This document shows, one piece after another, positions 28,593 to 32,340 of a stretch of DNA of 44,489 bases; position 1 is the first letter of the stretch; each line of letters begins with the position of its first letter. The position numbers were made by a program, and so were the translations under genes. The notes beneath the pieces were generated by a model. The model searched no databases. It saw only the letters and a list, made by a program, of their open reading frames with translations, and had not been told where the DNA came from. The stretch comes from Chitinivibrionales bacterium (GTDB lineage: Bacteria; Fibrobacterota; Chitinivibrionia; Chitinivibrionales; WJKA01), in assembly GCA_038247415.1 (NCBI GenBank), contig JBBRUX010000034.1:1-44489 (forward strand), read 5' to 3'.

Positions 28593-29324
28593 ATGATGTT
28601 TGCTAAACATTCAATTTTTTTAGTACTCGCTTTTTCGATGGCAGTATCGGCTGCAAAAATAGAGATGACCTACGAGCAGTATCAAACTGAGCTTTCGGCT
28701 GTCCAACAACGGGAAAAAACAGCGCGCGAAGAAATTGCTGTAGAACAATCTAAGATAGAAGCACTGCGTCAACAAATCAACGATCTTGAACAGCGCATTA
28801 GTGCAACCCAGCAAGAGAAATACGCAATTCTTGGCATCACTGAAGCAGATGTGATTGCAATAGAATCTGAACTTGCTTCTATTCGTGATCTCTTGCAAAT
28901 ACTTTCTTCCCTCTCCAACGAGGATCTTCTCAAACGCAAAAAAGATGTTGCAAGCGCCGAACAACGCCTGGGCGATGTCAAGAAAAAACCCGTTTCATTT
29001 TTATGGCGTGTTCGAGATCAGATCGCTCCCCTGGATCAGATGCTTGCCGATCTTAAATCGCGTTTGTCTAGTGCCGTCGCTTCTCCTGCATCATCGTCAA
29101 CCTATCGCGTGGAAGATAATCCTACGCGTCGCGATTGTTTGTATCGTATTGCAGAAAAATCGGAAGTTTTTGGAGATCCTGCACAATGGCCCGCGTTGTA
29201 TCGCGCGAACAAGGGATTGCTCGATAGATCCTATGATAGATTCGTTAAAAAGACGGGTTCGTCTAAATATTCCGCTGCATCGGATCTTTTGTTCCCAGGG
29301 CAGGAATTAGTAATTCCTCGATAA
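28593..29324 (+). CDS. secreted coiled-coil protein with C-terminal LysM-like domain
   Basis: RBS AAGGAG; signal peptide; long coiled coil; TYRV...DCLYRIA...FGDP.QWP.LY.AN...LLFPGQELVIPR. Confidence 0.85.
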   Translation: MMFAKHSIFLVLAFSMAVSAAKIEMTYEQYQTELSAVQQREKTAREEIAVEQSKIEALRQQINDLEQRISATQQEKYAILGITEADVIAIESELASIRDLLQILSSLSNEDLLKRKKDVASAEQRLGDVKKKPVSFLWRVRDQIAPLDQMLADLKSRLSSAVASPASSSTYRVEDNPTRRDCLYRIAEKSEVFGDPAQWPALYRANKGLLDRSYDRFVKKTGSSKYSAASDLLFPGQELVIPR

Positions 29325-29344
29325 CCGCTGCAGTTTTGCAAAGC

Positions 29345-29381
29345 AAAAAGGCCTTCCTCTGTAAAGAAGAAGGCCTTTTTT
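29345..29381. terminator. bidirectional intrinsic terminator between the LysM gene and lexA
   Basis: AAAAAGGCCTTC...GAAGGCCTTTTTT. Confidence 0.88.
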
Positions 29382-29422
29382 AATGGGATGCATTTGAATG
29401 AATCACATACCGATTTTAGTAG

Positions 29423-30049
29423 TTAGCATTTTCTCAGTACCCCCGACAGTTTTCCAACAACCCACACGTCCTGATCCGAAAAGACAATAATATCGCCATA
29501 AGCAGGATTCTCTGCGCGTAGGATTATGTGATCGTTGTGTCGTATGAATCTTTTAAGCGTCGCCTCTCCGTCGATAATGACAACGGCAATTTCGTTGTTG
29601 TCTACGGTAGGTTGTTGACGTACTATAACGATATCACCATCAAGAATACCAGCACCAATCATGCTATCGCCGCGTACCCGCAAGGTAAAGAGACTATCGT
29701 TGCCAAACATTGTCTTGTCTATAGAAATATAGCCTTCGATGTTTTCTTCGGCGGTTATGGGCATTCCGGCGGCAACTCTACCAATAAGAGGGATGCTGCG
29801 GCTTTCGACTGTTTCAACTGGTTCTTCCAAACCAATAACAACTTCAATTCCCCTAGATCGCCCTGGTATTCTGCGTAAATAGCCTTTTTGTTCGATAAGC
29901 TTTAAATGCTGGTTTGCACTATTGGGGCTTGAGCAACCAAGATAGGCTGATATTTCACGCACAGTGGGCGGCGAGCCTGCAGTTTTTTGTTGGTGAATGA
30001 TATACGAAAGAACTTTTTTCTGATCGGGTGTTAGTGTTTTTATATTCAT
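29423..30049 (-). CDS. lexA: SOS repressor LexA
   Basis: PPTVREI...G.SSPNSA..HL wHTH; VAAG.P cleavage site; GDSM catalytic Ser; TLKR catalytic Lys. Confidence 0.96.
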   Translation of the reverse strand: MNIKTLTPDQKKVLSYIIHQQKTAGSPPTVREISAYLGCSSPNSANQHLKLIEQKGYLRRIPGRSRGIEVVIGLEEPVETVESRSIPLIGRVAAGMPITAEENIEGYISIDKTMFGNDSLFTLRVRGDSMIGAGILDGDIVIVRQQPTVDNNEIAVVIIDGEATLKRFIRHNDHIILRAENPAYGDIIVFSDQDVWVVGKLSGVLRKC

Positions 30050-30071
30050 GAAACTCTCCAGGGTCTAGGGG

Positions 30072-31328
30072 TTATTCTCCAAAAAGTGTACGGTATTCCT
30101 GATTTGATTGTAATTGTGCAGTGTGTCGAATTGTGTCAACTTCATCGAAATGGTTTAAAAGGGTGTCGATGATTTTTCCATCGAGTGCTGCAGCATGCTG
30201 CATGGTTTTCAAAATAGAAACCACCTCAGATTTTTTCATGGCGCTTCGATATGGTCTGTCTTCTGCTAAAGCGGTAAAGACATCTGACACACACATAATA
30301 CGTGAACCAAAGGGAATTGTCTCGCTTGTATGATGAAATGGATAGCCTTTTCCATCGAGACGTTCGTGATGAAATGTTCCCCATTGATTGATTGTTTCAA
30401 AATTGGGGATCGTATCTAAAATGCGAAATCCGTGATACGTATGACTGCGAATAACATTGAATTCGGTAGGGGTGAGCTTGCCTGTTTTTTCGAGAATTTC
30501 GGAGGGAATGGCTAGTTTGCCAAGGTCGTGTAGGTATCCTGCAATGCGCATGATCTTGCTCTCACGCGCAGAAAATCCACATAAATACGACAAATACGAT
30601 GATGTTGCAGCAACCCCGCTGGAATGCGTTGCAGTAAAGGCACTACGAAAATCGATAATTTTTGCATACAGCATCGCAAGATCATTGAGTTGTGTCATGT
30701 CAAGAGATACCGTTTTAAGACGCGCAGATTGGCGCAAAATCCTAAAAATAGAGCCACTCGTTGCATCAAGCCAGAAATACTCACGTTCGGCTATTCTGAG
30801 AAAAGCATCTACTACTACAGGCGCGAATTGTGTGCCACTTTTTTCCTTAGCACGAGCAACAATGCCCGGCACCTGTCCCAGTATTTCTTCGTTTTTGTTG
30901 ATACACACCGCAACTCGATCGGCGAGGTGGAGGATTAAACTTGAGAGCGGAACAGGGTTGCCATTACTTTCTTGTGTCAATGTATCAAAGCTGTCATGAT
31001 GGTGCCGTATGGTAGGGGCCAAATGGGCAAGAGGGCCAAAAATGCTTATGAGACGTGCGCCATATTCGGCATGACGATCTTGAATATCGGTTTCGAAATT
31101 GAGTAAGTCAAGTCTTTGTGCAAGAGAAAGAGCCCCAATATCGTGGAGGGCGCCTGCAAGAATAATATCTTTCTGGTCATCAAGCGATTGACCAAGTTCC
31201 GCAGAAATCATGTAGGCAATATAGGCAACATGCTTATGATGGCTCATTAGCGATGGACTAATAAGATCTATCGCATCGGCAAGGCACACCACAAGATCAA
31301 AGAGAAAAATTTGGGGATCGCGAATCAT
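30072..31328 (-). CDS. tandem HD/HD-GYP cyclic-dinucleotide phosphodiesterase
   Basis: First HD domain (HHKHVA, LHDIG, HHHD, LAD); second domain THS..VA, LHDLGK, HHERLDGKGYP, D.F.AL..DRPYR. Confidence 0.92.
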   Translation of the reverse strand: MIRDPQIFLFDLVVCLADAIDLISPSLMSHHKHVAYIAYMISAELGQSLDDQKDIILAGALHDIGALSLAQRLDLLNFETDIQDRHAEYGARLISIFGPLAHLAPTIRHHHDSFDTLTQESNGNPVPLSSLILHLADRVAVCINKNEEILGQVPGIVARAKEKSGTQFAPVVVDAFLRIAEREYFWLDATSGSIFRILRQSARLKTVSLDMTQLNDLAMLYAKIIDFRSAFTATHSSGVAATSSYLSYLCGFSARESKIMRIAGYLHDLGKLAIPSEILEKTGKLTPTEFNVIRSHTYHGFRILDTIPNFETINQWGTFHHERLDGKGYPFHHTSETIPFGSRIMCVSDVFTALAEDRPYRSAMKKSEVVSILKTMQHAAALDGKIIDTLLNHFDEVDTIRHTAQLQSNQEYRTLFGE

Positions 31329-31355
31329 ACCTGTTCCTTCATTTATATTAGTTTA

Positions 31356-31384
31356 AATATACTGTACAGGCGAACAGTATTCAA
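31356..31384 (-). promoter_or_regulatory. sigma70 promoter with overlapping LexA (SOS) box
   Basis: Minus strand TTGAAT-N17-TATATT; palindrome ATACTGT-acaggcga-ACAGTAT at 31359-31380. Confidence 0.85.
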
Positions 31385-31391
31385 TAAAAAC

Positions 31392-32213
31392 TTATTGTTC
31401 GTCGATTACAGTAGAATCTTCGGTGGTATCCCGCGGTGGGGGAAGATTTGTTATCAGTGTATAATCGGTGTCACGAAGTTGGCCACGAAGATAGAGATTT
31501 GTGGCAATCATTGAGAGCCGTTTGCTCATACAGAGGGTTTTTGAGGTTTTAGGAGAAAGCTTTTCGGGCATTGCCAATACAGCAGCCATACGGGCCGACT
31601 CGTACTGTGTCAATTTGCGGCTCGATTTACCAAAATAGAGTTGCGTTGCTGCCTCGCATCCAAAAATATCCGGGCCCCATTGCGCATAGTTGAGGTATAA
31701 TTCAAGAATTCTTTTTTTGCCAAGAATCTGTTCCAATAAAACGGTGTAAAAAAGTTCTTGGTATTTACGCGAAAATGTCCGGTCGCTTTTTAAAAAGAGA
31801 TTTTTAGCAAGCTGTTGAGTTATTGTGCTTGCGCCCCGCTTAATGCTATTATGAGACCGGTTATATTGCATCGCTTCGAGCATTGCTTCGAGGTCAAATC
31901 CCGGATGTGAATAAAAGCCATCGTCCTCAGCAGCAAGCACTGCAGAAAGAAGGCTTGGCGCAATAGAATCGATGGGGATAAAAATCTGCTTCTGTGCAAA
32001 GGGGAGATTGCGCAATTTTTTTGTCGCTTCATAGTTTTTCATGAAGGAAGTTTGCAATGGGTTGTGTGTCGAGAGTCCTTTTACCTGCTTGATAGGTGCA
32101 TAAACAATGGTTCCTAAATAGCAGAGCCCTATGGTTGCGGCAAGGGAAAAAAGAATTGCATAAACAATAAAGGTGTTCCAGATTATTTTGAGAATCAGAC
32201 GCAAGATTTTCAT
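31392..32213 (-). CDS. mtgA: monofunctional biosynthetic peptidoglycan transglycosylase (GT51)
   Basis: EDDGFYSH.G, RGASTITQQLAKNLFL, RK..E, K.RILELYLN; no transpeptidase domain. Confidence 0.9.
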   Translation of the reverse strand: MKILRLILKIIWNTFIVYAILFSLAATIGLCYLGTIVYAPIKQVKGLSTHNPLQTSFMKNYEATKKLRNLPFAQKQIFIPIDSIAPSLLSAVLAAEDDGFYSHPGFDLEAMLEAMQYNRSHNSIKRGASTITQQLAKNLFLKSDRTFSRKYQELFYTVLLEQILGKKRILELYLNYAQWGPDIFGCEAATQLYFGKSSRKLTQYESARMAAVLAMPEKLSPKTSKTLCMSKRLSMIATNLYLRGQLRDTDYTLITNLPPPRDTTEDSTVIDEQ

Positions 32214-32340
32214 GCAGTAAGCCAATCAGGGTAGGGGTAGAGTTTGCACGGCATAGCATATCATAATGTTATGGGGATTTAAAAATTAAGTGATTGCAGG
32301 GGGAATTAAAAATAAATAAGAAACAGAAAAGTAATACGTA

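Follow-up and report, generated by a model that had tools for sequence, protein, structure and literature searches.

The window that we analysed is the whole DNA stretch of positions 1-44,489 of contig JBBRUX010000034.1, from an uncultured sediment bacterium of the Chitinivibrionales (Fibrobacterota). Within it we considered a locus whose genes all lie on the minus strand. Read in the direction of transcription, a peptidoglycan transglycosylase gene (mtgA) is followed by a promoter that contains a candidate operator for LexA, by a gene for a protein with two HD domains, the second of the HD-GYP type (the HD/HD-GYP gene), and then by lexA. This arrangement was analysed as a candidate LexA-repressed operon in which a predicted cyclic-dinucleotide phosphodiesterase occupies the place of the first cistron.

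The mtgA stop codon (31392-31394) and the ATG of the HD/HD-GYP gene (31328) are separated by a gap of 63 bp. On the minus strand, this gap holds a -35 hexamer TTGAAT (31379-31384) and a -10 hexamer TATATT (31356-31361), which were read from the sequence and were recovered by a promoter scan as TTGAAT-17-TATATT. The 17 nt between the two hexamers are occupied by the palindrome ATACTGT-N8-ACAGTAT. The candidate operator is the 20-nt sequence TACTGT-N8-ACAGTA at 31360-31379, that is, a CTGT-N8-ACAG palindrome extended on both sides and placed over the core promoter elements, so that it includes the final base of the -35 at one end and the -10's first two bases at the other. We assigned it to the type-1 LexA class on the basis of its perfect match and of the presence of the same module at the type-1 lexA genes of relatives, as described below. 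A Shine-Dalgarno-like AAGGA (31335-31339, minus strand) stands 6 nt ahead of the HD/HD-GYP ATG.

The HD/HD-GYP gene (30072-31328, minus strand) encodes 418 aa, with Pfam matches to HD_5 (2e-40) and HD (7.2e-24), and ends with the stop codon 30072-30074. The intercistronic gap that follows (30050-30071, minus strand) is only 22 nt long and contains GGAGAG (30059-30054), after which lexA starts with the ATG at 30049. The lexA gene (29423-30049, minus strand) encodes a 208-aa protein of type 1 (TIGR00498 at 203.2 bits, cut-off 110.95; Pfam LexA_DNA_bind and Peptidase_S24). About 45 nt past its stop codon there is a predicted intrinsic terminator (~29340-29380, minus strand), with a 16-bp hairpin and a U-run, whose fold of -33.2 kcal/mol was equalled in none of 200 shuffles (z -4.73). 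From the module to this strong terminator, the predicted transcript measures ~2.0 kb. On the minus strand from the HD/HD-GYP gene to lexA the terminator scan found nothing, neither a promoter-like nor a terminator-like site was found in the 22-nt gap, and a search of the locus for CTGT-N8-ACAG returned no second box. Inside the HD-GYP gene, the promoter-like sites were 9/12 matches only, about as many as chance would give (5 against an expectation of 4.4); one of them lies ~250 nt upstream of lexA (30323-30295, minus strand). The GC content is uniform over the HD/HD-GYP gene (0.437), lexA (0.440) and mtgA (0.429). An earlier note, made from the sequence of this DNA, had described the hexamers, the palindrome and the gaps of 63 and 22 bp, and every coordinate and distance in it proved correct; its claim that the 22-bp gap leaves no place for a separate promoter or operator agrees with the scan, which found no promoter-like site and no second LexA-type box.

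As to the genes on either side, mtgA (31392-32225, minus strand; TIGR02070 at 196.8 bits, cut-off 182.65, and Pfam Transgly) encodes a monofunctional peptidoglycan transglycosylase and adjoins the module upstream on the same strand. On the other side, the terminator faces a convergent open reading frame (ORF) at 28593-29324 on the plus strand, which converges on lexA, uses the same bidirectional terminator and encodes 243 aa with a signal-peptide-like N-terminus; no Pfam family matched it.

We then considered the protein encoded by the first cistron. Its N-terminal HD domain covers aa 29-140 (nt 31244-30909) and its C-terminal HD-GYP domain aa 222-385 (nt 30665-30174; PF13487 at 138.8 bits, cut-off 27.2). 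In an alignment of 72 orthologues, the invariant residues were H30, H62-D63, H86, H110-H111 and D137 in the N-terminal domain and D226, H235, H267-D268, K271, H296, H320, E322, G328-Y329-P330 and D349 in the C-terminal one, with H321 conserved in at least 90% of the sequences. The HD-GYP metal ligands (H...HD...H...HHE...D) and the GYP triad are therefore all present. The best solved relative was V-cGAP3 of Vibrio cholerae (PDB 5z7c), with E values of 6.7e-34 by sequence and 8e-57 by profile and with both domains aligned. The AlphaFold model had a mean predicted local distance difference test (pLDDT) score of 88.5 and a predicted template modelling (pTM) score of 0.86, and Foldseek aligned it to 5z7c over the full length (template modelling score 0.65/0.65, 428 columns, 22% identity). 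The next structural matches were the HD-GYP domains of PmGH, DvhD, PA4781 and Bd1817. The two HD domains and the full-length alignment to V-cGAP3 bear out the tandem HD/HD-GYP identity proposed in the earlier note.

Concerning the substrate, cyclic di-GMP (c-di-GMP) is the commonest one of HD-GYP proteins, according to the review PMC8177086, in which VCA0681, VCA0931 and VCA0210 are said to cut both c-di-GMP and 3'3'-cGAMP (cyclic GMP-AMP) and the determinants of HD-GYP specificity are described as not agreed. The signalling inventory of the genome comprised 10 GGDEF, 6 PilZ and 6 HD-GYP matches, with 0 EAL matches, and HD-GYP proteins were the only c-di-GMP-degrading class found in it. A search for SMODS/CD-NTase (PF18144) gave 0 matches in the genome, which is 96.17% complete; other synthase families and Hypr-GGDEF were outside this search. 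Because of these counts (10 GGDEF, 6 PilZ, 0 EAL and 0 CD-NTase), we favoured c-di-GMP over signalling of the cyclic-oligonucleotide-based antiphage signalling system (CBASS) type, and c-di-GMP is the likeliest predicted substrate. The idea that the enzyme damps CBASS or cGAMP signalling, also put forward in the earlier note, found no support, as no SMODS/CD-NTase was matched in the genome.

The LexA encoded in the window is intact: the AAG cleavage site, the Ser of GDSM and the Lys of LKR align with those of solved LexA proteins, and the recognition helix aligns with that of solved gammaproteobacterial LexA proteins.

Taken by itself, the box in the window is not significant, with 1 match at up to 2 mismatches against an average of 0.96 in shuffles. 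In the 3.84-Mb genome, the perfect 20-mer occurs only twice, and both occurrences have the extended form ATACTGT...ACAGTAT, are intergenic and overlap a promoter; by a hand estimate from the base frequencies, ~0.03 such extended sites (14 specified bases) were expected in the genome. With a weight matrix built solely from the lexA operators of 10 relatives, the other perfect site came 1st in the genome, with 26.2 bits, and that of the window 3rd, with 18.8 bits. The sites ranked 2, 4 and 5 lie within long ORFs, and these, together with the one-mismatch sites, were set aside as chance, intragenic occurrences. It is conservation in relatives that raises the candidate site of the window above chance.

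The other perfect box (L001:1501-1520, corresponding to G000:C8:85722-85741) is at a UvrD-like helicase gene. It overlaps both a probable -10, the TATATT in the centre of the box, and the ATG of this gene, which suggests a leaderless or near-leaderless transcript under putative LexA control.

The relatives within the order carry two LexA lineages, of which type 1 is 45-66% and type 2 34-40% identical to the window LexA. Upstream of type-1 lexA, they have CTTGCAT-ACTGTTCAAATGTACAGT-ATATT and so share the promoter-with-box of the window, with TTGCAT or TTGTAT at the place corresponding to the -35. We searched 81 genomes of the order with the 29-nt pattern TTGNATACTGT-N8-ACAGTATATT (the module) and obtained 31 matches in 28 genomes, against 0 control matches. 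The TATATT -10 was invariant in all 31 matches since it was fixed by the pattern, and it was also found in looser read-outs. We examined 30 module loci (one of the 31 matches received no locus) and found lexA downstream in 23 of them: directly in 4, after a small ORF in 17, after a VOC-like fragment in 1 and after the HD/HD-GYP gene in 1, which is the genome studied here; lexA was absent downstream in 7. Since 18 of the other 22 module-lexA loci also have an ORF between module and lexA, lexA is to be seen as a regular downstream cistron in this clade. In all of these 22 loci the module was the only box seen. Module and lexA are 1311 nt apart here and 43-430 nt apart in the relatives.

The module was found in 10 of the 18 genomes with type-1 lexA and in none of the 23 without it (41 genomes compared). 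In the relatives G002 and G004 the sole perfect box genome-wide was the one at lexA, and in G001 and G006, in which no LexA was found, there were zero perfect boxes genome-wide. Taken together, there is strong comparative evidence that type-1 LexA would bind the box and autoregulate through it. The usual order in the relatives is module, small ORF, lexA and a gene for a radical-SAM protein with a helix-hairpin-helix (HHH) domain; tblastn placed this last gene behind lexA in 16 of the 23 module-lexA loci, and DUF72 followed lexA in 2.

The genes that stand behind the module when lexA is absent were also inspected. In 5 of these 7 loci there was a 150-164-aa GyrI/SbmC-like gene, recognised by Pfam in 3 cases and as a near-identical copy in 2. 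Such genes occur stand-alone behind the module in relatives of family f5 (L157:1596-2054, L160:1531-2025 and L174:1591-2052), in five genomes overall, and they have a parallel in the SOS-inducible sbmC of Escherichia coli. The other genes predicted to be driven by the module or the box are of SOS type: GyrI/SbmC-like genes, the UvrD-like helicase gene and, after lexA, the radical-SAM plus HHH gene. In one relative (L164:1374-1496, minus strand) the module precedes not lexA but a short ORF resembling a reverse-transcriptase fragment, perhaps the trace of an insertion by which the operon was broken up. G032 has a second perfect box (L147), ahead of a 489-aa ORF that is truncated by the edge of the locus; this ORF matched no Pfam family and did not resemble the helicase.

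The small ORF that separates module and lexA in 17 of the 23 loci encodes 70-100 aa (for example, L046:2126-2392(-), L050:1158-1373(+), L054:2257-2496(-) and L042:2213-2476(-)) and ends with the C-terminal motif F-x-[IM]-KGG-x-[VI]-x-x-G-x-x-RR-x-x-[IV]-x-GKI. None of 10 such ORFs of relatives matched a Pfam family, and tblastn of these against the genome studied here gave nothing significant (best E 0.078). Their product may be a new SOS effector. The radical-SAM plus HHH genes are ~375-394 aa long (L038:2131-3270, L043:276-1418, L049:366-1493, L050:2281-3399 and L054:218-1402), and tblastn at E <= 1e-5 recovered no such gene from this genome.

We also looked for the HD/HD-GYP gene itself. 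Full-length orthologues were present in 6 of 40 relatives, with 40-59% identity, and their loci, with flanks of ~1.5 kb (L012 ends at a contig end), contained no lexA, no mtgA and no CTGT-N8-ACAG box. Scans of genome and metagenome contigs with the single protein returned no close HD/HD-GYP relative, and a scan of 185,579 species genomes with an alignment as query returned 80 family loci with 43-58% identity, in Nitrospirota, Bacillota, Desulfobacterota, Chloroflexota and others. No lexA was found within flanks of up to 3 kb of these 80 loci. The present locus is hence the sole case of an HD/HD-GYP gene as first cistron among the 30 module loci, the 6 orthologues of the order and the 80 family loci. 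Synteny of box, HD-GYP gene and lexA in related genomes had been named as a check in the earlier note; the order was kept in no relative searched, and the box is conserved with lexA and not with the HD-GYP gene. The genome has one full-length member of the HD/HD-GYP family only. Because of this single copy, of the uniform GC content and of closest homologues within the same order, we infer that the gene was vertically inherited and moved within the genome, rather than acquired from a foreign source.

The same-strand neighbours of the family loci were varied and included hemerythrin, flavin reductase-rubredoxin and GGDEF/EAL genes. The orthologues often lie directly after hemerythrin (L076, L095, L104, L112 and L123) or beside flavin reductase-rubredoxin (L069, L077 and L138), which hints at a redox or O2/NO control of the family. 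The upstream neighbour was RuvA in 2 loci (L102 and L108) and the single-stranded DNA-binding protein SSB in another 2 (L126 and L143).

We also verified the contiguity of the locus in assemblies of sequencing runs. A 12,971-bp contig of run X1, which is possibly the source of the assembly, spans the whole stretch of the locus. In run X3, of the same study as X1, separate contigs carry positions 28900-30337, across the junction of lexA and the HD-GYP gene, as well as 30504-31845, across HD-GYP gene, box and mtgA. The independent study X4 provided a 393-bp contig over 31067-31459, from mtgA through the box to the HD/HD-GYP gene, with zero differences; among the X4 pieces listed none covers 30050-30071, so that the HD-GYP/lexA junction is without an independent bridge there. 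From run X5, with a small share of the words of the stretch, came no more than short pieces with a partial fit. As separate X3 and X4 contigs bridge the junctions without differences, the locus is unlikely to be an artefact of assembly.

On these grounds we consider it probable that the locus is a LexA-repressed bicistronic operon, in which the HD/HD-GYP phosphodiesterase gene and then lexA would be transcribed from the sigma-70-type promoter to the terminator behind lexA. In undamaged cells, a dimer of type-1 LexA on the box would block RNA polymerase; upon DNA damage, LexA self-cleavage stimulated by RecA would free the promoter. The phosphodiesterase and fresh LexA would then be produced together, so that the pulse of enzyme would shut itself off. 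The enzymatic effect would most likely be hydrolysis of c-di-GMP, and the c-di-GMP network would thereby be coupled to DNA damage. In evolutionary terms, the ancestral lexA promoter/operator of the clade would have been kept and the first cistron swapped, as the relatives have a small ORF or nothing at this place. Of the LexA-autoregulated operon proposed in the earlier note, the autoregulatory part stands well in silico, given a box-promoter conserved with type-1 lexA and no other box or terminator before lexA, whereas the induction by damage is inferred only.

Several observations weigh against this operon or against parts of it. With up to 1 mismatch allowed, the genome contained 6 sites and the reversed control gave 14, hence no enrichment; for the bare CTGT-N8-ACAG there were 32 occurrences, a number inside the 11-196 spanned by 12 control palindromes. 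The centre of the box is G+C-rich in the window (TCGCCTGT against TCAAATGT in the clade), and the putative operator may be weaker than the helicase site (18.8 against 26.2 bits). The gap after mtgA shows no terminator-like fold when the predicted fold is compared with shuffles, and LexA-independent read-through from mtgA is possible; a weak internal promoter may also serve lexA. The genome encodes a second LexA paralogue (G000:C4:112910-113515, plus strand), 37% identical to the window LexA, and its recA is without a type-1 SOS box. Therefore the type-1 regulon looks very small, with 2 promoter-placed sites, and the response of the window LexA to DNA damage is putative. The substrate of the enzyme is predicted only, and its nearest solved relative is named a cGAMP phosphodiesterase. 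Finally, the arrangement is known from one genome or lineage only, and this is metagenome-derived; with one genome only, selection for the linkage cannot therefore be shown.

In connection with the second LexA, we noted that the type-2 lexA genes of relatives (L055-L065) are preceded, within a TTGACA promoter, by a palindrome of another kind, of which TGTGTATATTATACACA and GGTGTATATTTATATACC are examples. Two short type-2 operator motifs taken from the relatives were absent from 29300-31500 at up to 3 mismatches and from the genome at up to 1 mismatch. Upstream of recA (L151:2600-2680, minus strand, G000:C49) the direct repeat CATTTATGTGCT occurs twice, ~35 nt apart, and might be a type-2 LexA half-site.

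Other readings of how this locus is transcribed were weighed against the operon. The palindrome lies 12 nt past the mtgA stop codon and on the same strand, and it could in principle be the transcription terminator of mtgA rather than an operator. We give this hardly any credence: its stem has only 2 G-C pairs and is followed by no U-run, the predicted fold of the gap ignores the palindrome hairpin (z -0.87, with 40 of 200 shuffles as stable), and the same sequence precedes lexA in relatives with unrelated upstream genes. As the fold was no more stable than shuffles, the palindrome was rejected as an mtgA terminator. It could also be that the SOS promoter serves only or mainly the HD/HD-GYP gene and that lexA is expressed chiefly from a promoter of its own in the 3' part of the HD-GYP gene, where the 9/12 site at 30323-30295 lies ~250 nt upstream of lexA; the distance of 1311 nt between module and lexA, longer than the 43-430 nt of the relatives, would be in keeping with this. 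We judge it improbable, as that site is at the level expected by chance (5 against 4.4) and lacks a LexA box, the HD-GYP/lexA gap measures 22 nt, has a ribosome-binding site of its own and holds no terminator, the module was the only box seen in all 22 other module-lexA loci, and with a lexA promoter of this kind the autoregulation of lexA would be lost.

Two further readings concern the enzyme and the linkage. The operon could be real and the enzyme mainly directed to another nucleotide, such as 3'3'-cGAMP or pGpG, or its N-terminal HD domain could act on another nucleotide. In this direction go the name of V-cGAP3, the best solved relative, as a cGAMP-specific phosphodiesterase, the N-terminal HD ligands, intact in 72 of 72 orthologues where V-cGAP3 has KD, and the presence of RuvA (2 loci) and SSB (2 loci) among family neighbours elsewhere. 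The inventory of the genome speaks for c-di-GMP instead (10 GGDEF, 6 PilZ, no EAL and no SMODS/CD-NTase match, with Hypr-GGDEF cGAMP synthases outside the search), as does the standing of c-di-GMP as the commonest HD-GYP substrate, cut by the Vibrio enzymes too, in the passages of PMC8177086 cited above; we therefore hold a different main substrate to be a minority view, though one to be taken seriously. Somewhat less likely is that the linkage has no physiological meaning, having arisen by a recent and neutral rearrangement within a single lineage or as an artefact of assembly; the HD-GYP gene would then merely have come to lie between the lexA promoter and lexA. Indeed, none of the relatives and family loci that were examined shows this arrangement, the centre of the operator has moved away from the consensus of the clade, and this genome has lost both the small ORF and the radical-SAM gene with which the ancestral operon was equipped. 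On the other hand, contigs of X3 and of the independent X4 bridge the junctions with no differences, the HD/HD-GYP gene has kept every invariant residue and is intact, as are the promoter, the box, the ribosome-binding sites and the terminator, and, if LexA controls lexA, the position of the HD/HD-GYP gene would necessarily place it under LexA control.

Going beyond the LexA-repressed operon itself, one may tentatively propose, as something possible and rather doubtful, that the slot between the SOS operator and lexA is an evolutionary plug-in site for varied damage-response effectors: the KGG..RR..GKI protein in most lineages of the order, a VOC-like fragment in one, nothing in some, and here a c-di-GMP phosphodiesterase through which damage would lower c-di-GMP directly and for a short time, in a genome whose only c-di-GMP-degrading enzymes found are HD-GYP proteins. 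If true, this would be a hard-wired link from SOS to a second messenger, possibly a dispersal or cell-cycle checkpoint in place of a small protein. Both SOS and c-di-GMP are tied to biofilm formation and persistence, and most reported links between them are indirect. If the wiring works, it would offer a compact natural example of a self-limiting second-messenger pulse triggered by damage. The survey points, in addition, to an E. coli-type SOS box in the Chitinivibrionales, to the coexistence of two LexA lineages and to a first cistron of the lexA operon that appears exchangeable. The weight of all this is limited by a single lineage, known from metagenomes only and predicted from sequence.

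We finally compared the locus with known systems. In E. coli, the recA and lexA genes have CTGT-N8-ACAG operators placed inside the promoter. The box described here is of the same TACTGT-N8-ACAGTA class and likewise fills the spacer between -35 and -10; it differs in its host, which belongs to the Chitinivibrionales/Fibrobacterota and not to the Proteobacteria, and in its setting, with a tiny regulon, a recA without box and a second LexA. With the lexA operon of its own clade, the locus shares the 29-nt module and lexA as a downstream cistron, whereas the first cistron is a 418-aa HD/HD-GYP protein here and not the 70-100-aa KGG..RR..GKI protein of no known family. With V-cGAP3 and the HD-[HD-GYP] subclass, the enzyme shares a build of two domains, HD-type at the N-terminus and catalytic HD-GYP at the C-terminus; it differs by having only 22% identity in the structural alignment and by keeping the H/HD/H/HH/D ligands where V-cGAP3 has KD. 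To our knowledge, no SOS control of the Vibrio V-cGAP enzymes is known.

In the literature, a full-text search returned no cyclic-dinucleotide phosphodiesterase inside a lexA operon, with key HD-[HD-GYP] papers outside its coverage, PMC8428550 reported no direct LexA-c-di-GMP link, and PMC9380542 named c-di-GMP in its list of references alone. The earlier note had not recognised this wiring as described. This holds for a phosphodiesterase within a lexA operon, and not for LexA control of c-di-GMP breakdown as such, for which PMC6473078 provides a precedent, with a LexA site predicted in silico at the promoter of pde2, a c-di-GMP phosphodiesterase gene of Dinoroseobacter shibae. In both cases LexA is predicted to govern the breakdown of c-di-GMP. 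In the passages of PMC6473078 considered here, pde2 is a separate, alphaproteobacterial gene with a different LexA motif and is not stated to encode an HD-GYP protein, whereas the gene considered here lies inside the lexA operon. The presence of two LexA paralogues in one genome has a counterpart in Leptospira interrogans, which has two lexA genes according to PMC3789691, the likeness considered being that of copy number. On the whole, we regard the locus as a predicted SOS operon with an unusual cargo, whose architecture appears new within the literature searched and whose putative function, LexA control of c-di-GMP breakdown, had previously been predicted for pde2 of D. shibae.

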